From assembly GCA_041674705.1 (NCBI GenBank), contig JBAYVF010000004.1:38516-102515 (forward strand): a stretch of DNA of 64,000 nucleotides, written 5' to 3'. Positions within the stretch are counted from its first letter, which is position 1. Each line of letters starts with the position of its first letter. Position numbers and translations under genes: made by a program. The notes under the pieces were generated by a model that saw only the letters and a program-made list of their open reading frames with translations, was not told where the DNA came from and did no database searches. Below, one piece after another: positions 6,333-60,803 of the stretch. This stretch comes from Candidatus Omnitrophota bacterium. GTDB lineage: Bacteria; Omnitrophota; Omnitrophia; Omnitrophales; Aquincolibacteriaceae.

Positions 6333-6425
6333 GGGGTCCTCCGAATGTTATTAGCATATGCCAATAATAGCCCTCAAGAGACTACTTGTCAAGGATTCGA
6401 AGGAACTTTGCTGAATGGAGGGAAG

Positions 6426-11800: not shown

Positions 11801-12036
11801 CGGAGGGGATGCCCCTTGAAGAAGCCGTGATCGATGCCGGGGTGAAGCGCTTCAGGCCGATGCTTTTGACAGCGGCGGCGGTAGTCGTCGGCGCATCGGT
11901 CATTCTGTTCGACCCGATCTTTCAGGGTTTAGCCGTCGCCTTGATGGCGGGGGAGATCGCCTCGACGATCCTTTCTCGAACCGCAGTTCCTGTTTTCTAT
12001 TACATGATGGCTAAAAAAACAGGGACTCGGGACTAG
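8812..12036 (+). CDS. RND efflux transporter permease (AcrB/CzcA-type)
   Basis: 1074 aa. 12-TM RND architecture with large periplasmic loops. Confidence 0.85.
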   Translation: MATHHSDIISGIVSYFAKSKITPLIIAASLIIGVFAVINLPREEEPQISVPMFDIFVAYPGADSKEVEQRIVTLGERKLWEIPGVEYVYSTIEPEGALIIVRFKVGEDVEKSLIKLYTKVYSNLDFLPSDATQPLIKVRSIDDVPILTLTFHGKDKDPVVLRRTVANVQNIVNAIPDVSETRITGGRKRQFQVFFDEEKLKARLLNPLEITQIIRSANVKQSAGHLESAPELESVEANSFFRTKSDLENLVVGASAGSVVTLKDIAKVVDGPDEEERASEIFFGPASKEKDKGPFDAVTLSISKRKGANAAHLSEVILHAIKELPETTLPKDVEMTVTRDYGETAKEKSNELLFHMAIAIFGVSVLIAWVLGLRESGVVAIAIPMTLALTLATFYFLGYTLNRITLFALIFSIGILVDDPIVDVENIVRHLRLPDNKGKSILDITIEAVNEVRSPLILATLTVIAAILPMAFVSGLMGPYMRPIPIGASAAMMFSMFVAFVATPWAAYQILGRAFAQGKLKAHHEGEKEDFLTHLYRSYMNPLIYNAKIRQWFLIGLGTLLALAVLLVPLKLVRMKMLPFDNKNEFQVVLNMPEGTPAAKTQAVITEIADYLVTTPEVKDIEMYVGSAAPYNFNGLVRHYFLRSKPFQADLQVNLAGKHQRKRQSHDIAKAVRPRIHEIVKKHGGHVQVAEVPPGPPVLSTLVLEIYGPTLEGQTKLAKQIEGLLASSEGVTDIDTYIQSPEKLMRLRVNTQKASLNGIPVAQIAEVITTAVGGKTVDLAHLSEEYEPVEILLRLPKEKRAGMESVLNMTLLSRYGNPIPVRELVDIEKDTKDPAIYHKNLMRVSYVIADVAGKFESPAYAILKLKKEIAKMPVPVNQEGQKTLDQLFNGQPQTTDRWTLKWDGEWQITYEVFRDLGIAFVFVLLLIYALVVGWFQSFKTPWIIMLPIPLTLVGILPAHWLGGVFFTATSMIGMIAGAGIVVRNSIILVDFIEMRRAEGMPLEEAVIDAGVKRFRPMLLTAAAVVVGASVILFDPIFQGLAVALMAGEIASTILSRTAVPVFYYMMAKKTGTRD

Positions 12037-12073
12037 GGACTCGTTCCTCGAAAGAGTTTTGACGAGTCCCGAG
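12022..12073. repeat. REP-like GGGACTCG/CGAGTCCC palindromic element (copy 1), overlapping the RND stop codon
   Basis: GGGACTCGGGACTAGGGACTCG...CGAGTCCCGAG. The same motif family is present at 17758-17867 and 60626-60690. Confidence 0.6.
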
Positions 12074-12088
12074 CAACGGGGGTTTATT

Positions 12089-12292: not shown

Positions 12293-12306
12293 CCGATATT
12301 ACCCCA

Positions 12307-12363
12307 TGTAACACCGGGTGTTAAAACGGTGTCATTTCCCCGAATGTAAGACCGGGTGTTACA
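12307..12363. promoter_or_regulatory. Two tandem 17-19-bp palindromes TGTAACACCGGGTGTTA and TGTAAGACCGGGTGTTACA (putative regulator or enhancer sites)
   Basis: Seen directly at 12307-12323 and 12345-12363. They lie 45-105 bp upstream of the TTGACA and TGGCAC elements. Confidence 0.4.
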
Positions 12364-12382: not shown

Positions 12383-12426
12383 TTGACACTCCTTCCGCCT
12401 TCGGGCAGAATGGCACCACTTTTAAT
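12383..12426 (+). promoter_or_regulatory. Candidate gatCAB promoter(s): TTGACA-17-CAGAAT overlapping a sigma54-like TGGCAC-N5-TTAAT
   Basis: TTGACA at 12383-12388, CAGAAT at 12406-12411, TGGCAC at 12411-12416. The -12 element lacks GC, so the sigma54 assignment is weak. Confidence 0.35.
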
Positions 12427-12443: not shown

Positions 12444-12566
12444 CCCCGTTAGAGATTCACGAGAAGAAATTGTGCGAGATTGATTTTTAATGAAAACATT
12501 TAAAGTGGTAGACATAGATAGCCAGACAAGCGGAAGCGCCCTAGGCGCTTCCTATCTCTAACGGGG
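12444..12566 (+). promoter_or_regulatory. Leader hairpin: 11-bp inverted repeat CCCCGTTAGAG...CTCTAACGGGG enclosing about 100 nt, with an inner 9-bp hairpin, ending 5 nt before the gatC ATG
   Basis: Arms at 12444-12454 and 12556-12566. Inner GGAAGCGCC-CTA-GGCGCTTCC at 12532-12552. The same arms recur at 45314-45416. Confidence 0.5.
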
Positions 12567-12571
12567 TAAAC

Positions 12572-12853
12572 ATGGAAATCAATATCGATAGAGTTGCGGA
12601 ACTTGCGCGGCTCAATCTTAAAGCCGAAGAAAAAAAGAAGCTCGAAAAAGACCTCGGGGCGATCCTCGACTACGTCAAAAAACTGGATAAGCTGGATACG
12701 TCCAAAGTCGAGCCCACGAGCCATGTCCTTAATATGGAGAACGTGTTCCGCCCTGATGAAGCCAAGTCTTCGGATGCCGCCTCAAAGGCCCTGGAACATG
12801 CCCCTCAGACCGAAGGCTCTTTCTTCAAAGTCCCCAAGATCGTGCAAAGATAA
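12572..12853 (+). CDS. gatC: Asp-tRNA(Asn)/Glu-tRNA(Gln) amidotransferase subunit C
   Basis: 93 aa with a typical GatC sequence (LARLNL..EE...L..IL.YV..L). Lies upstream of gatA. Confidence 0.9.
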   Translation: MEINIDRVAELARLNLKAEEKKKLEKDLGAILDYVKKLDKLDTSKVEPTSHVLNMENVFRPDEAKSSDAASKALEHAPQTEGSFFKVPKIVQR

Positions 12854-14321: not shown

Positions 14322-14346
14322 AGACTACAGACCAGAGACGACAGCG

Positions 14347-14562
14347 ATGACGAATAATTTGCATCATGCAGCTAAAAAGTATGTCGAAGTGATCGAGAAG
14401 ATTGAAAGAACCACCAATCCCAAAGAGTTGCAGGAACTTGAGGAGAAGCGGGTGGACCTGCACTGGAAGTTTATCGATCTGCTCAAAAAGCAGGGGATCA
14501 AATATAAAGACAGAGATCACGCAACCCGGATTGCCATACGGATTGCGCACGGAGAGTTATGA
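14347..14562 (+). CDS. Hypothetical small protein (71 aa) within the gatA-gatB insert
   Basis: ORF only. ATGA overlap with the next ORF. Lower GC than flanking genes. Confidence 0.4.
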   Translation: MTNNLHHAAKKYVEVIEKIERTTNPKELQELEEKRVDLHWKFIDLLKKQGIKYKDRDHATRIAIRIAHGEL

Positions 14563-14792
14563 CGACGCTTGAAATTGCTCGCATTTATACGGATCTGGTG
14601 AAGGCGGAGCGGGAGATTCCTGAAGCGGAGCACCAGGCCAAGGAAAAGATCAATGCTCTCCGGACCAAGTATCACGAGATCCTGATGGCAAAGATGCGGG
14701 AAGAACGGATCGATTTCTCCGATCGCTTCGACGCCGCAGCCAAGGCTTTCGATCTTGTTCGCGAAGAAGATTCAAAGTACGGTGGTAGGTAG
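14559..14792 (+). CDS. Hypothetical small protein (77 aa) within the gatA-gatB insert
   Basis: ORF only, charged and helical. Coupled to the previous ORF. Confidence 0.4.
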   Translation: MTTLEIARIYTDLVKAEREIPEAEHQAKEKINALRTKYHEILMAKMREERIDFSDRFDAAAKAFDLVREEDSKYGGR

Positions 14793-14835
14793 TTGCAGAG
14801 CATTTGTGCGGCGCCGCACGAATTGGAAATGAATT

Positions 14836-15006
14836 AGCTCGACGTCGAGCTTATTGAGATCAGGCTGGCAAGGCGGTTCGGGCAGTCGGGGGCCTTATAT
14901 CGTATATGATATACCTGCCTGCCGGCAGGCGGCAAAACAGTCGGCGCCGACTGTTTTGGCCAATAGTGTGGGGGAGCTAACCCCTCCCCACCGGACGCCG
15001 TCCGGT
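14836..15006. repeat. Cluster of five GC-rich perfect palindromes
   Basis: AGCTCGACGTCGAGCT (14836-14851). GCCTGCCGGCAGGC (14917-14930). AAAACAGTCGGCGCCGACTGTTTT (14934-14957). GGGGAG-ctaacc-CTCCCC (about 14970-14989). ACCGGACGCCGTCCGGT (14990-15006). Confidence 0.65.
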
Positions 15007-15024
15007 TGACAAGAATGGAGAGAG

Positions 15025-15591
15025 ATGAAGAAAGAGCCATTTGTGCCAAGCTTAGGCTCTGATGTAATTAAGAAGTTTTGTCAGTTGTGTGATTGGGCGT
15101 ATCAATCATGGCTAATGCAACGGACTCTTTTTGATGATAACCCTAATCTTTATGTTCTGGAAAAGGATAGTTTTCAGAGATTTTTTAGTCTTCTTAATAA
15201 TGTTACGCTCGAATATGCCCTTCAGCAGCTCATAAAGCTTCATGATCCGGCAATTATGAATGGCAAGATTAATCTGACGATTAATTGCATAGTCCAATAT
15301 GGCGACTGGGAAAAGAAGGTGAGGACGGATTTAAAAAGTCTTAGCGACGAGTTAGAGTTATTAGCCGGATGCCTGAGAGCGGCGAGGAATAAAGTTCTTT
15401 CTCATAACGATTTTCTGGCGTGCATGGAAAATGTGCCGATCGGTTGTTTTGAGGAAAACAAAGATAGGGATTATTTTGATAAGCTCCAAGAATTTGTAAA
15501 TATTGTTCATGATAAAACGATCGGCGGGCCTTATCCTTTTGATAGTTTGGTGCAAAGTTACACCCGCGAATTTTTGAGTGCGCTGAAATAG
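15025..15591 (+). CDS. Hypothetical protein, low-GC cargo gene; possible HEPN-like Rx5H motif
   Basis: 188 aa, AT-rich codon usage. Motif RNKVLSH near residue 120. No confident family match. Confidence 0.5.
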   Translation: MKKEPFVPSLGSDVIKKFCQLCDWAYQSWLMQRTLFDDNPNLYVLEKDSFQRFFSLLNNVTLEYALQQLIKLHDPAIMNGKINLTINCIVQYGDWEKKVRTDLKSLSDELELLAGCLRAARNKVLSHNDFLACMENVPIGCFEENKDRDYFDKLQEFVNIVHDKTIGGPYPFDSLVQSYTREFLSALK

Positions 15592-15633
15592 CATTAGTAA
15601 CTGCGGCTATTCCTGTGCGCTAAAGTAATCAAA

Positions 15634-16197
15634 ATGATTCAAAGGGGAAGCCTGGTGGACGACAAATTGTTGAATGACATAGCAAAAAGCTTTGTTGTGA
15701 CGGCGCTTAGCTATACCAACCAGAACTGGCGGACATTTTGTCAGTCTTGGAGCAAGGCGTTGAAGGCTGATTTGTCAGGAGACGCTGAGGCTAAACTAGA
15801 ATTTTCGATGGCCATTATCGGGTTGGGCTTGTCACGCATTAAACGAGATTCTTTGGAAAATACTGCATCGCGTGAAGTTGGCAAGGTGCAGGCTGAGAAG
15901 ATTAGAGATTATTTGAGGGTGATGTCGGGCAACTTAGGTGATGAGCCATGGGAAAAGGCAATGAAGTATCATAATGCTTATGAAAATTGTCCCAATTTCG
16001 ATTCGAGATTTGATAAACCTCCTTTTGAAAGCCGCGTGGAAGCAATAGCCGTGGTTTTATTCGATTCTTTTAAAATAGCGCATCTTATTAAAATAGGAGG
16101 TCGCATCTCTTACGAACCTCTTACGCTTATGATGCTTGCTGGTACAGTTTTGGCAGCTTACCAAGACTGTAAAAACACATTTCAGAGTTTATTATGA
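15634..16197 (+). CDS. Hypothetical protein, low-GC cargo gene
   Basis: 187 aa, AT-rich. Partner of the previous ORF. No recognisable domain. Confidence 0.5.
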
Positions 16198-16325
16198 ACT
16201 ACGAACCTGTGATCGGACTTGAGGTCCACGTACAGCTGAAAACAAAGAGCAAGCTGTTTTGTTCGTGCTTCCGCCACACAGCGCGGCGGACAGGCGACGG
16301 AATTCGGTTAAGGAATGAATTATGA
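16194..16325 (+). pseudogene. Diverged duplicate of the gatB 5' end (25 gatB codons, then unrelated sequence to a stop)
   Basis: [25 protein letters not shown] matches gatB residues 1-25 ([25 protein letters not shown]) with about 22 synonymous nt differences. Its ATG overlaps the stop of the upstream cargo ORF. Confidence 0.7.
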
Positions 16326-17773
16326 ATTATGAGCCCGTGATAGGTTTGGAAGTGCATGTTCAATTGAAGACAAGATCAAAGTTGTTTTGTTCTTGTTCCA
16401 CCACTTTTGGCGAGGAAGGTAATAAGAATACATGCCCCGTGTGTCTCGGCTGGCCGGGGTCATTGCCGGTACTGAACGAAGCGGCGCTGAAACTCGGGAT
16501 TCGGGTGGGGCTTGCGCTTAATTGCAAGATCGCCGAGCGGCTCAAGTTCGACCGGAAGAATTATTTTTATCCGGATCTTCCCAAAGCCTACCAGATCTCG
16601 CAATTCGATATGCCGGTGAACGGCCGCGGCGAACTTCTCATCGAAACAAAAGATGCGGAAGGAAAAATGATCGAGCGAAAGATCGGGATTACTCGTGCGC
16701 ACCTGGAAGAAGATGCCGGGAAGCTTCTGCATGAAGGCATCGCGGACGGCAGTCTCGTGGACTACAACCGCGGCGGTATCCCGCTTCTTGAGATCGTCTC
16801 CGAACCGGATCTCGGAAGCCCGCAAGAGGCGCATGACTATCTCACCGCGCTCAAGGCCATCCTTCAATATGTGGAAGTGAGCGACTGCGATATGGAAAAG
16901 GGGAGCCTTCGCTGCGACGCGAACGTGTCGGTGCGGCCCGTGAGCCAGGAAAAACTCGGGACCAAGGTCGAGATCAAGAACCTGAACTCGTTCAAGATGG
17001 TGGCGCGAGCGATCCAGTACGAGATCGAACGGCAGACGGAAGCGCTTGAACGCGGGGAGGCGATCGTCCAGGAAACGCGACTTTGGAGTGACGCCGAGGG
17101 CATGACGGTTTCCATGCGTTCCAAAGAAGATGCCCACGACTACCGTTATTTTCCCGAGCCCGACCTTGTGCCTTTCACCTTGTCGCGCGAAGTCGTAGAG
17201 GCGATCCGGAAGACTTTGCCGGAATTGCCGCTTGAGCGCGCGAAGCGGTTCATCAAAGAATTCGGCATTCCGGAATATGATGCCTATGTGCTGGTGCAGG
17301 AGAAAAAACTGGCCAACTATTTTGAATCCTGCATTCGCGAAGGCGCCGCGCCGAAGCTCGCGAGCAATTGGATCCAAAATGAACTCTTGGCGCTGCTGAA
17401 TGTGAAAAACATCGCGATCGATGAGTGCCTGGTTTCGCCCCACGCGCTTGCCGGACTGATCCGGCTGGTCGAAAAAGGGATCGTAAGCGGGAAAACCGCT
17501 AAAGATGTTTTTCAGGAAATGGCGGCGACCGGTAAAACGGCGGACGTAATCGTTAAAGAAAAAGGCCTCACGCAGGTTTCGGATACCGGGCTCATTGAAA
17601 AAGCCGTTGAAAAAGCGATCGCCGCGAATCCCACGGCCGTCGCGGAATTCAAGGCCGGCAAACAAAAAGCCCTCGGCGCGCTGGTGGGTGCCGTTATGAA
17701 AGAAACCGGCGGCAAGGCGAATCCGAAAGTGGTTAATGAAATTCTCATTAACAAGCTGGGGACTCGTAGCTAG
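16322..17773 (+). CDS. gatB: Asp-tRNA(Asn)/Glu-tRNA(Gln) amidotransferase subunit B
   Basis: 483 aa, canonical GatB. Its last codons (GTRS*) are supplied by the REP-like element. Confidence 0.95.
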
Positions 17774-17867
17774 GGACTCGCACCTCGTGAAAAAAACTAC
17801 TCGTACCTCGTACCTCGTATCTCGGGACTCGAAAAAACGAGGAACTAGTCCCGAGTCCCGAGTCCCG
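17758..17867. repeat. REP-like GGGACTCG/CGAGTCCC element (copy 2), with CTCGTAC x3 and GTCCCGA x3 tandem units
   Basis: GGGACTCG x3, CTCGTACCTCGTACCTCG, CGAGGAACTAGTCCCGAGTCCCGAGTCCCG. Overlaps the gatB 3' end and the nominal tsaD 5' extension. Confidence 0.6.
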
Positions 17868-21829: not shown

Positions 21830-22078
21830 ATGTCTTTTTTTGTTTATGGTCTCGAGAGTAAAAAAGACGGTCGGCATTACGTGGGAAGCGGTGAAGATGT
21901 TGACGAAAGATTGCGGCGGCACAATTTAGGCGATTATCGTTATACTAAAGGTCATCGGCCGTGGATTGTGATTTACAAGGAATCCTGCAAGTCACGCTCA
22001 GAAGCTGTAAAGCGGGAACGGTTTTTTAAATCCGGCGTAGGGCGCAAGTTCTTAAAAGAAATTATTAGTTCGAAATAA
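21830..22078 (+). CDS. Small stand-alone GIY-YIG nuclease-domain protein
   Basis: FFVYGLESKKDGRHYVGSGEDVDERLRRHN...RPW...ESCKSRSEAVKRERFFKSGVGRKFL. Start moved to MSFFVYG, 1 nt after the spoVG stop. Confidence 0.7.
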   Translation: MSFFVYGLESKKDGRHYVGSGEDVDERLRRHNLGDYRYTKGHRPWIVIYKESCKSRSEAVKRERFFKSGVGRKFLKEIISSK

Positions 22079-22086
22079 CAAAGTAT

Positions 22087-22157
22087 TGCCCCGTGGTGAA
22101 ATGGTATCACACTGCCCTTTGGAGGCAAGGTTTCTGGTTCGAGCCCAGACGGGGCAG
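22087..22157 (+). tRNA. tRNA-Gln (anticodon UUG)
   Basis: Hand-folded cloverleaf. Acceptor TGCCCCG/CGGGGCA with U1:A72 and G73. U8. D-arm GTGA-AATGGTA-TCAC. Anticodon loop CTTTGGA. T-arm TCTGG-TTCGAGC-CCAGA. No CCA is encoded. Confidence 0.8.
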
Positions 22158-22415
22158 ATTTTAAGAATCAAAGAACGGTTTTAAGGGAGCCCTTTTCCGC
22201 CTGAGGCGGATTCGTCCGCAAGGCGAATCCGATGATGAACGGATTCGCCTCTGGCGAAGGAGGCAAGGTTTCTGGTTCGAGCCCAGACGGGGCAGATTTT
22301 AAGAATCAAAGAACGGTTTAAGGGAGCCCTTTTCCGCCTGAGGCGGATTCGTCCGCAAGGCGAATCCGATGATGGACGGATTCGCCTCTGGCGAAGGAGG
22401 CAAGGTTTCTGGTTC
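22121..22415 (+). repeat. Tandem 138/137-bp repeat (about 2.15 copies), each unit starting with the 3' half of tRNA-Gln (GGAGGCAAGGTTTCTGGTTCGAGCCCAGACGGGGCAG)
   Basis: Units begin at 22121, 22259 and 22396. The last unit is truncated. Units contain several small GC hairpins (CCGCC-TGA-GGCGG, CGGATTCG..CGAATCCG). Confidence 0.75.
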
Positions 22416-23454: not shown

Positions 23455-23563
23455 AACATCGTAGAATATAGCTTGTCATCCCCGCGGAGGCGGGGATCCA
23501 GTGAATGGATTCCCGATGAAGGCATTCGGGAATGACATTATTAGGGGATCTTAAGAGAAGACC

Positions 23564-43984: not shown

Positions 43985-45313
43985 ATGCGAAAAAAAAGTA
44001 AGCTTTTTTGGGAAATTATTCTTTTCTTTGTTTTTCTGGGTTTATCGAAAATGGTATGGGCTGCAGACCCAGCGGTCCCGCCCGTTAGCGGCGGAGATAT
44101 CTCGTGGGTTCTTGTTTCCGCGGCTCTGGTATTTCTGATGACTCCCGGTTTGGCTTTTTTCTACGGCGGGCTCGTTCGTAAGAAGAATATGCTCTCGGTC
44201 CTGATGCAGTGCTTTATTTTGATATGCCTGATCACGCTTCAGTGGGTGCTTTTCGGCTATAGTTTGGCATTTGGTCCGGATGTGAAGGGGCTGATCGGCA
44301 ACTTGAGCTGGGCAGGGCTTCAGGGCGTGGGTCTGGATCCTTTTGCGGCTTATTCATCTACAATCCCGCATCAGCTTTTTATGATCTATCAAGCGATGTT
44401 CGCGATTATCACGCCGGGCTTGATCCTGGGGGCCTTCGCAGAGCGCATGAAATTCTCCGCATTTTGTATCTTCTCGCTTCTTTGGGCCACATTCGTTTAC
44501 GATCCCGTTTGCCACTGGATGTGGGGTGCGGGTGGTTTCCTGAGAGATATGGGGGCTCTTGATTTTGCGGGTGGGGTTGTGGTTCATATCAACGCCGGCA
44601 TTGCGGCTTTGGTTTGCGCGCTTGTGCTCGGTAAAAGAAAAGGCTATCCCAGTCATATGTCGCCTCCCCACAACCTGCCCTTTGCGGTTTTAGGTGCCGG
44701 GCTTCTTTGGTTCGGTTGGTTTGGGTTTAATGGAGGAAGTGCGTTAGGCGCCAATCGACTCGCCGTGAGCGCCATGGTCGTTTCTCACGTTGCCGGGGCA
44801 GCTGCCGGGCTGACTTGGGCGCTCCTGGAATGGAAGTTCAACTCTAAACCTACCATGCTCGGTATGATTACCGGCGCCGTCGCGGGACTTGCGACGATCA
44901 CCCCGGCAGCAGGCTTTGTGGGGCCGATCGATGCGATCTGGATAGGGGTTTTGGCTTCACTCGTCTGTTTCTTTTGTGTGGCGGTGGTTAAAGCCAAGTT
45001 CACTTACGATGATTCACTGGATGCTTTCGGAGTGCACGGGGTTGGCGGGATCGTGGGGACTTTGGCCACGGGACTCTGGGCGACAAAGGCCATCAATCCA
45101 GCCGGGAATAACGGACTTTTTTACGGAAATCCGGGTCTGTTTCTAATTCAGCTGAAGGCTGTGGGGATCACCATTGTTTATTCATTTGTCGTCTCCTGGG
45201 TCCTTCTGAAGCTTGTGGATGTTTTTATAGGTCTGCGTGTTTCTGAGGACGGCGAACGCATCGGGCTGGATCTCACGCAGCATCGTGAATCTGCCTACAC
45301 CATGTTGGATTAA
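43985..45313 (+). CDS. amt: Ammonium transporter (copy 2)
   Basis: Paralogue of copy 1, about 75% identical. GGAGG Shine-Dalgarno before ATG 43985. Confidence 0.9.
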   Translation: MRKKSKLFWEIILFFVFLGLSKMVWAADPAVPPVSGGDISWVLVSAALVFLMTPGLAFFYGGLVRKKNMLSVLMQCFILICLITLQWVLFGYSLAFGPDVKGLIGNLSWAGLQGVGLDPFAAYSSTIPHQLFMIYQAMFAIITPGLILGAFAERMKFSAFCIFSLLWATFVYDPVCHWMWGAGGFLRDMGALDFAGGVVVHINAGIAALVCALVLGKRKGYPSHMSPPHNLPFAVLGAGLLWFGWFGFNGGSALGANRLAVSAMVVSHVAGAAAGLTWALLEWKFNSKPTMLGMITGAVAGLATITPAAGFVGPIDAIWIGVLASLVCFFCVAVVKAKFTYDDSLDAFGVHGVGGIVGTLATGLWATKAINPAGNNGLFYGNPGLFLIQLKAVGITIVYSFVVSWVLLKLVDVFIGLRVSEDGERIGLDLTQHRESAYTMLD

Positions 45314-45416
45314 CCCCGTTAGAGGTTCAGATGTCTCATAACGGACGTTCTAGAAAGTATGCGAATCAATACATCAAAAACACATCCCGTGAAAGTGGGT
45401 TAGATCTCTAACGGGG
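45314..45416 (+). promoter_or_regulatory. Second copy of the CCCCGTTAGAG...CTCTAACGGGG bracketed leader, between amt2 and glnK2
   Basis: Arms at 45314-45324 (starting right after the amt2 stop) and 45406-45416. The interior differs from the gatC copy. GGAGG Shine-Dalgarno and the glnK2 ATG follow. Confidence 0.5.
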
Positions 45417-45430
45417 TAAAGGAGGAACCT

Positions 45431-45772
45431 ATGCGCTACATCATTGCGATCATTCAACCAGATCGATTGGACGAAGTTTTGAGAATCTTGGAAGAAAAAG
45501 AGATTCATCTCGTGACGGTCACAAGCGTTCTGGGGCGCGGACGTCAAAAGGGGATTTCGGAAGTTTATCGCGGTCATAAGGAAAATGGACGTCTCTTGAA
45601 AAAAATAAAACTGGAGATCGCCGTGAATGAAGAGTTCGTGAAAGCTACCGTCGACGCCATTATCCAAGGTGCTCGAACTAATCACATCGGGGATGGAAAG
45701 ATCTTCGTTCTTGATCTAAAAGAATGTTTTCGTATCCGTACCGGTGAGACCGGGAAAATAGCGATCGGTTAA
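45431..45772 (+). CDS. glnK: Nitrogen regulatory protein P-II (copy 2)
   Basis: Near-identical to copy 1. Confidence 0.9.
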   Translation: MRYIIAIIQPDRLDEVLRILEEKEIHLVTVTSVLGRGRQKGISEVYRGHKENGRLLKKIKLEIAVNEEFVKATVDAIIQGARTNHIGDGKIFVLDLKECFRIRTGETGKIAIG

Positions 45773-45790
45773 ACCCAACTAAAAAGAGTA

Positions 45791-45854
45791 TCCCGGCCCA
45801 AAATCGCCTCCCCTGGCGATTGAGAAGTACCCCTTCTCGGGGCCGGGATTTTTC
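45791..45854 (+). terminator. Repeated 64-nt compound terminator element (copy 1)
   Basis: TCCCGGCCC...nested AATCGCC-tcccctg-GCGATT...GGGGCCGGGA followed by TTTTT. Near-identical to 47610-47674. Confidence 0.55.
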
Positions 45855-47609: not shown

Positions 47610-47674
47610 CATCCCGGCCCAAGATCGCCTCCCCTGGTGATCGAGAAGTACCCCTTCTCAGGGCCGGGACTTTT
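47610..47674 (+). terminator. Repeated 64-nt compound terminator element (copy 2)
   Basis: TCCCGGCCCAAGATCGCCTCCCCTGGTGATCGAGAAGTACCCCTTCTCAGGGCCGGGA followed by TTTTTT. Confidence 0.55.
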
Positions 47675-60625: not shown

Positions 60626-60690
60626 GGGACTCGTACCTCGGGACTCGTTTTGGTTCCTCGTTTTTACGAGTCCCTAGTCCCGAGTCCCGG
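60626..60690. repeat. REP-like GGGACTCG/CGAGTCCC element (copy 3)
   Basis: GGGACTCGTACCTCGGGACTCG...CGAGTCCCTAGTCCCGAGTCCCG, upstream of hom. Confidence 0.6.
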
Positions 60691-60803
60691 CTCTTCGGTT
60701 GGCGCCGAAGGGCTGTTTGATTTTTGCTTTGAGGTAAGTTATACTGCGCTGCCTTCGTTAAGGTTTGTCATCACTGAACTTAGGACATTTACTCAGGAGA
60801 AAT

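Follow-up and report, generated by a model that had tools for sequence, protein, structure and literature searches.

Is a motif common to the upstream regions of two nitrogen-related genes the signal of a common regulation, or the trace of insertions? This question is raised by a 64-kb stretch of contig JBAYVF010000004.1 from a Candidatus Omnitrophota bacterium (the window, meaning the whole stretch of 64,000 nucleotides analyzed here), in which the same inverted repeat brackets the leader of gatC and the spacer between amt2 and glnK2. A previous inspection of the letters (the sequence-only reading) had offered two explanations, a cis-regulatory RNA tied to nitrogen genes and an insertion resembling a miniature inverted-repeat transposable element (MITE) with conserved terminal inverted repeats. 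The second one is supported by the spread of the repeats, by target duplications and by empty sites in relatives. The repeats of the window are most likely the terminal inverted repeats of two non-autonomous copies, of 123 and 103 bp, from a family of very small mobile palindromic elements. Each of these copies is an insertion missing from the closest relatives, and the family is further characterized by a 4-bp duplication, by its multi-copy spread, and by ends common with a unit that codes for a small GIY-YIG nuclease.

Two Repeat Pairs and Their Empty Sites

With at most one mismatch, CCCCGTTAGAG has four matches in the window, at 12444-12454(+), 12556-12566(-), 45314-45324(+), and 45406-45416(-), compared with a mean of 0.77 in shuffled versions of the window, four matches being reached in none of 100 shuffles. 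They form the only inverted pairs of CCCCGTTAGAG and CTCTAACGGGG in the window, 12444-12566 and 45314-45416, which are above chance and coincide with those described in the sequence-only reading. That reading had also placed the 3′ arms a few nucleotides before the start codons and the 5′ arm of the second copy directly after the amt2 stop codon, and both placements are correct: between the 3′ arm and the start codon there are 5 nt in gatC (ATG at 12572) and 14 nt in glnK2 (ATG at 45431), and the 5′ arm starting at 45314 abuts the stop codon at 45311-45313. The 11 bp assigned to the arms correspond to a real repeat but were too short, as complementarity is perfect over 13 bp in the gatC copy (CCCCGTTAGAGAT/ATCTCTAACGGGG), and in the glnK2 copy it is perfect over 11 bp and extends to about 15 bp when G-U pairs are counted. 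The enclosed sequences do differ, as had been stated, and the two interiors share neither sequence nor structure. The perfect hairpin noticed inside the gatC copy (Table 1) exists as well, but it is not specific to gatC, being a conserved module of one subfamily of elements. Finally, folding, which had been proposed as a check, predicts both copies to be more stable than shuffled sequences (-50.4 kcal/mol and z -6.5 for the gatC copy; -37.2 kcal/mol and z -3.1 for the glnK2 copy), although this excess is uninformative, since it is expected of any inverted repeat.

The decisive evidence comes from the orthologous sites. L142 holds the closest relative of amt2 (Amt 88% identical), and its spacer is free of the element and only 9 nt long, with the junction GGATTAA/GGGGGAACC-ATG; precisely at this empty junction, the window carries an insert of 103 bp together with a repeated TAA. 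In the same way, the gatC leaders of L221-L223 (GatC 87-89% identical) keep the promoter-like site TTGACA-17-CAGAAT and reach the ATG after some 30-35 nt, free of the element. An identical version of the second copy is present in an independent assembly (L003).

Other relatives carry different insertions at the same positions. The gatC leaders of L224 and L225 (GatC 90% identical) lack the element but hold other palindromic insertions, and in L141 and L144 the amt-glnK spacer is occupied by hairpin repeats similar to the NTS repeats of Neisseria. The fact that different palindromic insertions are found at the same two spots in these four loci indicates that such short A-rich spacers are insertion hot spots, and the gatC leader is a recurrent landing site for palindromic insertions. 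Those of L224 (~1090-1200, GTAGGGCAGGTTTAAACCTGTCCTAC) and L225 (~250-345, TCAGGGGACAGGCA...TGCCTGTCCCCTGA) are unrelated palindromes.

The comparison with Rfam that the sequence-only reading had suggested gave no support to an RNA. At gathering thresholds, the only match in the whole window is tRNA-Gln, and scans of both copies with E-values up to 10 returned only chance matches (E >1, 11.7-15.3 bits, against gathering thresholds of at least 33.3), none of them to the glutamine riboswitch (glnA RNA) or Downstream-peptide families.

A Family with Target-Site Duplications

The family was defined from 150 arm pairs with at most one mismatch per arm. The elements range from 31 to 388 bp, mostly 100-122 bp, and follow the consensus TNNA-CCCCGTTAGAGA...TCTCTAACGGGG-TNNA. 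An exact 4-bp direct repeat is found at the flanks of 88 of 148 copies, whereas the adjoining 4-mers farther out agree in 1 of 148, and permuted flank partners yield a mean of 13.9 identical pairs and never more than 25. Within the duplicated target, T-N-N-A, the first base is T in 85% and the last one A in 83% of the cases. Even the mini-elements of 31-32 nt, which are hardly more than two arms, exhibit target duplications, and copies can be nested (L004) or arranged head to tail with a common 4-nt flank (L030, L085, and L094).

As a separate observation on the flanks, the left one is a base short at L038 1412-1426 (TCA for TCAA) and at 45310-45313 of the window (TAA for TAAA), which represents a recurrent irregularity. 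Two other types of repeat were considered and rejected. Integron attC sites do not apply, because the order of the arms here (5′-GTTAGAG ... CTCTAAC-3′) is the reverse of that of attC (5′-RYYYAAC ... GTTRRRY-3′) and the flanking genes are core genes, not cassettes. A CRISPR-like or tandem spacer array does not apply either, as the arrays of L030, L085, and L094 are head-to-tail elements that share a 4-nt flank.

Across the family, the interiors fall into several unrelated groups. The subfamily of the gatC copy holds a GC-rich hairpin beside one arm, and 25 distinct element ends fold in this manner; about 21 of these 25 hairpins begin 3 nt past the arm on two G-C pairs, most have GT after the stem, and the pairs above the G-C base covary (T-A/A-T/C-G/G-C at the third position). 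Taken as MITEs, the window copies are shorter than 300 bp, have no coding capacity of their own, and bear terminal inverted repeats; a fixed-length target-site duplication is found family-wide, although it is imperfect at the window copies, and presence/absence at orthologous sites is observed in L142 and in L221-L223. Candidate partner units with the same ends (274-279 bp) exist as well, but they encode an 86-aa GIY-YIG nuclease and not a known transposase.

The distribution of the family is very wide. A scan of a one-genome-per-species collection with CCCCGTTAGAG-N(70-100)-CTCTAACGGGG detected at least 120 loci, whose hosts, known from metagenome-assembled genomes (MAGs), are mainly Omnitrophota, many Patescibacteria (candidate phyla radiation, CPR) lineages, and Planctomycetota. 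Elusimicrobiota, Nitrospirota, several deltaproteobacterial lineages (according to the record names), Bdellovibrionales, Ratteibacteria, Auribacterota, WOR-3, Stahlbacteria, and one Clostridia bin are also included, and copies with identical arms occur in at least 10 bacterial groups. Several MAGs contribute 3-5 loci each, and many of the 8-kb loci hold 2-4 copies. On the other hand, scans of IMG/VR at both the short and the full-length arm spacing gave no matches, and tblastn searches with the nuclease found no match in phages and only Bacillus yazA-like genes in plasmids.

The genes adjoining the copies are not involved in nitrogen metabolism. The sequence-only reading had anticipated that many copies at positions unrelated to nitrogen genes would favor a MITE, which is what these loci exhibit. 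The window copies being non-autonomous insertions of a widespread family, their association with nitrogen genes is therefore coincidental.

Full-Length Units Encoding a GIY-YIG Nuclease

In two of the loci, L117 (279 bp) and L004 (388 bp, with a nested copy inside), the arms enclose a small open reading frame (ORF) for a GIY-YIG nuclease. Full-length units measure 274-279 bp and hold one gene, which encodes a single-domain GIY-YIG nuclease of 86 aa. The 3′ arm constitutes the last codons of this gene, TCT CTA ACG GGG (S-L-T-G), and the stop codon is provided by the first three bases of the flank. Both arms are present in seven of seven independent genes (L004, L117, the L124 group, the L134 group, L226/227, L228, and L229), one of which, L228, shows a perfect TGAA duplication. 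Likewise, the DNA of all five homologues inspected holds CCCCGTTAGAGA 5-10 nt before the ATG and ends in ...CTATCTCTAACGGGG followed by TAA or TGA.

This overlap between arm and gene accounts for two properties of the family. Because the flank supplies the stop codon, the flanks are locked in orientation (TAAA or TGAA follows the 3′ arm read in sense, and TTTA or TTCA is seen on the opposite strand), and because one arm is coding sequence, the arms are strongly conserved across phyla. The gatC copy is in sense orientation relative to the ancestral nuclease gene and retains a relic of it, as its last 22 nt (12545-12566) recur unchanged at the 3′ end of the L226 full-length unit and agree with the C-terminus of the family, ...KRFLSLTG.

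A protein search recovered 5657 homologues, typically of 86 aa, and among the best 120 of these 5657 the C-terminus is exactly FLSLTG in 82; a search of cluster representatives (50% identity) gave 7272 matching clusters. Domain matches are limited to Pfam PF01541, and the relatives in PDB are 1zg2 and 1ywl, both UPF0213. The nearest named or solved relatives are thus the UPF0213/YazA proteins, which may form a clade neighboring the one represented by the domain model cd10448.

Sister subfamilies (P0254, P0261, P0263, P0269, P0275, P0286, and others) end in ...YLTG instead of ...FLSLTG, which hints at related elements with correspondingly different arms.

Insertions inside Coding Sequences

The length of the element plus 4 is divisible by three in 71 of 149 copies, when about 50 would be expected, an in-frame excess with a chi-square of about 16 by simple arithmetic, among copies that are not all independent. 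In all cases where a long ORF is recovered by taking out the element together with one of the two target copies, the insert keeps the reading frame, is free of stop codons, and reads ...TPLE...SLTG.... Hosts confirmed with Pfam include RNase R (between CSD2 and RNB), the UvrD helicase (with the domain split), the beta subunit of glycyl-tRNA synthetase (GlyS, also split), and a GT9 heptosyltransferase, and in-frame copies are found in prepilins and in a 2600-aa ORF as well.

In type IV prepilins, the copies sit at the G/FT cleavage motif (GGG TTT A/C), as observed at 6334-6425 and 6918-7021 of L018 and at 2076-2188 of L093, and they regenerate this motif at their own 3′ end (...SLTG/FTLIEL). 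Judging from the regenerated motif, the mature pilin could stay unchanged after processing.

How the Elements May Move

The presence of the same ends in the short copies and in the nuclease units suggests that the former may be moved in trans by the 86-aa GIY-YIG nuclease or with its help, a proposal to which we give an even chance. The nuclease may recognize the hairpin formed by the arms, probably in single-stranded DNA, in the way that Ssn nucleases (see below) recognize hairpin repeats, and would make the cuts by which the unit and its derivatives move, with their integration still needing host ligation or repair. We infer this nuclease-driven mobility from sequence features. A stronger version, which we hold tentatively and rate somewhat short of even, is that the 274-279 bp unit of arm, gene, and arm would be an autonomous transposable element able to move itself and derivatives of 30-130 bp through a novel nuclease-based mechanism that generates 4-bp TNNA duplications. 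We know of no autonomous element of a smaller size.

Several facts weigh against this picture. The flanks of the window copies are imperfect (CTTG/TAAA at gatC; TTAA/TAAA, or TAA/TAA, at glnK2), and a perfect duplication is present in only one of the six full-length units whose two flanks could be read. Remnants of the gene in the window are restricted to 22 nt at the end of the gatC copy, with none in the rest of its interior or in that of the glnK2 copy; the interiors are not homologous to the nuclease gene, and the status of deletion derivative is supported for the ends only. The contig holds no nuclease gene of the SLTG type, and its sole small GIY-YIG ORF (21830-22078) is 36% identical to the SLTG family and free of arms. 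To our knowledge, no strand-transfer activity is associated with the hydrolytic GIY-YIG nucleases, and terminal inverted repeats together with a duplication of fixed length are the classical signature of DDE transposases.

With regard to the window, both copies would have landed in A-rich TNNA sites beside ribosome-binding sites. They lie downstream of promoters and no terminator-like site is found in either of them, and therefore they are expected to be transcribed as part of the gatC leader and of the amt2-glnK2 spacer. Their effect on expression is possibly an incidental one, through a stem of 13-16 bp by the start region, the protection of mRNA ends, or an RNase III site, and is not that of a nitrogen-responsive switch. 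In gatC, where the 3′ arm ends so close to the ATG, the sole purine-rich stretch near the start lies partly inside the stem, and translation may consequently be affected, although this is speculative. In glnK2, the AGGAGG site is intact and downstream of the element.

Alternative Explanations

The copies could instead be ordinary MITEs moved by the DDE-type transposase of an insertion sequence with the same ends that has not yet been seen, in which case the GIY-YIG gene would be carried along as a passenger or constitute another kind of cargo. We regard this as unlikely, in spite of the established DDE hallmark that terminal inverted repeats and a fixed 4-bp duplication constitute, because the ~120 loci examined (each up to 8 kb, with ~0.7 Mb of flanks in total) contain no arm pair 0.7-3 kb apart, the longest pairs spanning 279-388 bp, two of them GIY-YIG units. 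In these loci, orphan arms are degenerate short copies or chance matches, and the sole candidate for a partner ORF (beside L061:5530) encodes an amidohydrolase. The persistence of duplications around arms-only mini copies of 31 nt, as if only the ends mattered, would suit a DDE enzyme, as would the hydrolytic nature of GIY-YIG enzymes, for which strand transfer is not known to us; a mere passenger, however, is hard to reconcile with a 3′ arm that encodes the conserved C-terminus in thousands of GIY-YIG genes.

More doubtful still is a domesticated repeat of the REP or NTS type, kept by the host for mRNA stabilization or processing, or for an Ssn-like control of incoming single-stranded DNA, so that the window copies would shape the expression or recombination of gatCAB and amt2-glnK2. 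NTS repeats do modulate transformation in Neisseria (PMC11893778), and the covariation of the subterminal hairpin indicates that a structure has been selected. Both window copies are, in addition, sense-oriented, free of terminators, and inferred to be co-transcribed. Nevertheless, presence and absence vary among close relatives, the interiors are unrelated, and the target duplications point to recent selfish insertion; as for the relatives that hold other palindromic repeats at the same two spots, A-rich insertion hot spots explain them equally well.

The remaining alternative, by which gatC and glnK2 would share a cis-regulatory RNA responding to nitrogen (a riboswitch, an attenuator, or a leader that binds protein) with a conserved closing stem and a variable interior, retains practically no probability, for while both copies lie just 5′ of the start codons of glutamine-related genes and are predicted to fold into stable closed structures, the empty sites found in the closest relatives have already refuted it, the interiors share neither sequence nor structure, Rfam is silent, and the same arms are found beside or inside unrelated genes (tuf, pilins, RNase R, UvrD, GlyS) in at least 10 bacterial groups.

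Other Features of the Window

Non-autonomous insertion being the preferred explanation, the features of both copies are collected in Table 1. The genes in their neighborhood code for GatC/GatA, two Amt-PII pairs, and a type III glutamine synthetase.

Table 1. Coordinates of the two probable element copies and of their associated features in the window.
Feature	Position	Strand	Remark
Element copy 1, 123 bp, non-autonomous, gatC 5′ leader	12444..12566	+	Empty gatC leaders in L221-L223
Copy 1, 5′ terminal inverted repeat CCCCGTTAGAGAT	12444..12456	+	First 13-14 nt equal the 5′ ends of full-length units L226, L228, and L229
Copy 1, 3′ terminal inverted repeat ATCTCTAACGGGG	12554..12566	+	S-L-T-G codons in full-length units
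Subterminal hairpin GGAAGCGCC-CTA-GGCGCTTCC, hallmark of "family B" copies	12532..12552	+	25 distinct element ends fold alike
Relic of the nuclease gene 3′ end, G CGC TTC CTA TCT CTA ACG GGG TAA = R F L S L T G stop	12545..12569	+	
Copy 1, 3′ flank TAAA	12567..12570	+	Left flank CTTG, so an intact duplication is missing; family consensus T-N-N-A
gatC promoter-like site TTGACA-17-CAGAAT	12383..12411	+	Upstream of copy 1; kept in element-free relatives
Element copy 2, 103 bp, non-autonomous, amt2 stop to glnK2 ribosome-binding site	45314..45416	+	
Copy 2, 5′ terminal inverted repeat CCCCGTTAGAGGT	45314..45326	+	
Copy 2, 3′ terminal inverted repeat ATCTCTAACGGGG	45404..45416	+	
Left target copy TAA (= amt2 stop codon)	45311..45313	+	L142 empty site GGATTAA/GGGGGAACCATG
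Right target copy TAAA	45417..45420	+	3/4 nt agree with left flank

The window also holds other repeats and insertions. An inverted doublet of hairpins similar to the Neisseria NTS, and hence related to the Ssn system, is located at 23465-23540 (GTCATCCCCGC-GGAG-GCGGGGATCCAG ... CATTCGGGAATGAC); it is of the same repeat type as those in the amt-glnK spacers of L141 and L144, and does not match the strict SRM expression. The small GIY-YIG ORF at 21830-22078 encodes a single-domain protein of 82 aa directly upstream of tRNA-Gln (22086-22158) and has only CGTTAGA before its ATG. Its product may be the cognate nuclease of the NTS-like repeat, which lies 1.4 kb away. Next to it, a tandem duplication at 22121-22415 comprises the 3′ portion of tRNA-Gln together with a unit of 99 nt (22180-22278 versus 22317-22415, 99% identical) and looks like an integration or duplication scar at a tRNA gene.

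Around the gat genes, some 2 kb (14322-16321) separate gatA from gatB and contain an AbiU2-type HEPN gene (15025-15591) and a 187-aa ORF, and the 5′ end of gatB is present in duplicate (16191-16267 versus 16319-16395, 71% identical). This arrangement suggests the insertion of a defense gene that duplicated its target. A near-identical pair of palindromes (ATGTAACACCGGGTGTTAAAAC/ATGTAAGACCGGGTGTTACAT) is found at 12306-12362, just upstream of the gatC promoter-like site. Other repeats comprise a family of GGGACTC units (GGGACTCGGGACTAGGGACTCG), with direct and inverted copies at gene ends (12015-12081, 17759-17866, and 60626-60695), and a repeat of 64 nt (copies 92% identical) that bears a terminator-like hairpin and a T-run and follows glnK2 (45790-45853) and the porin gene downstream of it (47611-47674).

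Comparison with Known Systems

Rickettsia palindromic elements are reportedly palindromic repeats inserted in frame into genes and tolerated as extra peptides. Like them, the elements described here are multi-copy palindromes of about 100-150 bp found in frame within housekeeping genes, in this case those of RNase R, UvrD, GlyS, prepilins, and the 2600-aa protein. They differ in their hosts and sequence family, in their exact 4-bp TNNA duplication, and in having a candidate autonomous partner.

The bacterial MITEs exemplified by the Correia elements of Neisseria are also short, non-coding, and multi-copy, with terminal inverted repeats and a target duplication, and they share with our family the insertion near gene starts and the co-transcription with neighboring genes. 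In contrast to Correia elements, the candidate parent is here a GIY-YIG unit of about 280 bp and not a DDE one, the arms are exact across phyla, and one arm is coding. Hairpin repeats, a small single-gene partner, and a proposed recognition of single-stranded structures are also characteristic of the REP/REPIN-RAYT systems and the palindromes of IS200/IS605. These, however, generate no target duplication and depend on a tyrosine (HUH) enzyme, whereas a 4-bp duplication is usual here, the partner is a GIY-YIG protein, and no Y1 transposase gene was seen beside the element copies.

The Ssn system offers another parallel. Ssn proteins are single-domain GIY-YIG proteins of ~94 aa (CDD cd10448) that cut single-stranded DNA beside hairpin repeats of 20-50 nt (NTS/SRM), which flank the ssn gene and exist in hundreds of copies (Chenal et al. 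2025, Nat Commun 16:2388, PMC11893778). The arrangement has been described by these authors as insertion-sequence-like, and neither duplications nor movement were reported (PMC11893778). As in Ssn, a single-domain GIY-YIG gene of ~90 aa is here bracketed by a multi-copy repeat able to form a hairpin (86 aa, with both arms in seven of seven genes). Unlike Ssn, where each side holds a full hairpin, one hairpin encloses the whole gene, with one arm in the 5′ leader and the other in the last four codons. The SRM consensus (HGTCWY..YYVSBRH..WNVSBRG..RNCYNB) is matched by the canonical NTS but by none of the 150 elements, and the arm-TNNA-arm junction does not match it either. Target duplications, empty sites, mini and nested copies, and in-frame insertions are present here but unreported for Ssn, and the hosts, MAGs of CPR, Omnitrophota, and Planctomycetota, are also unlike those of the Ssn system. 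A description of the family linked to GIY-YIG was not found in the searchable literature, the coverage of which is incomplete, so its novelty is unproven.

Significance

The first consequence of these results is a correction, since the motif common to two nitrogen genes is selfish DNA and not the signal of a regulon, and is unfit for inferring nitrogen control. In-frame insertions of this kind can also inflate or split gene calls and confuse motif searches, and the exact sequence of the arms provides a simple marker to annotate them in MAGs. In-frame palindromic insertions in essential genes, in the style of those of Rickettsia, are thereby extended to CPR, Omnitrophota, and Planctomycetota.

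The family links short palindromic repeats to a minimal nuclease gene. Its target duplications and its filled and empty sites are evidence, at the sequence level, for the mobility of an Ssn-like unit of gene plus repeat, which in the 2025 Ssn paper was only a hypothesis, and the family makes it possible to test directly if a minimal GIY-YIG gene flanked by repeats is a transposable element. If the 274-279 bp unit were indeed autonomous, it would have spread over at least 10 bacterial groups, seeding in-frame peptide insertions in housekeeping proteins, and the question of the Ssn paper, that of the mobility of small GIY-YIG genes set between repeats, would be answered.

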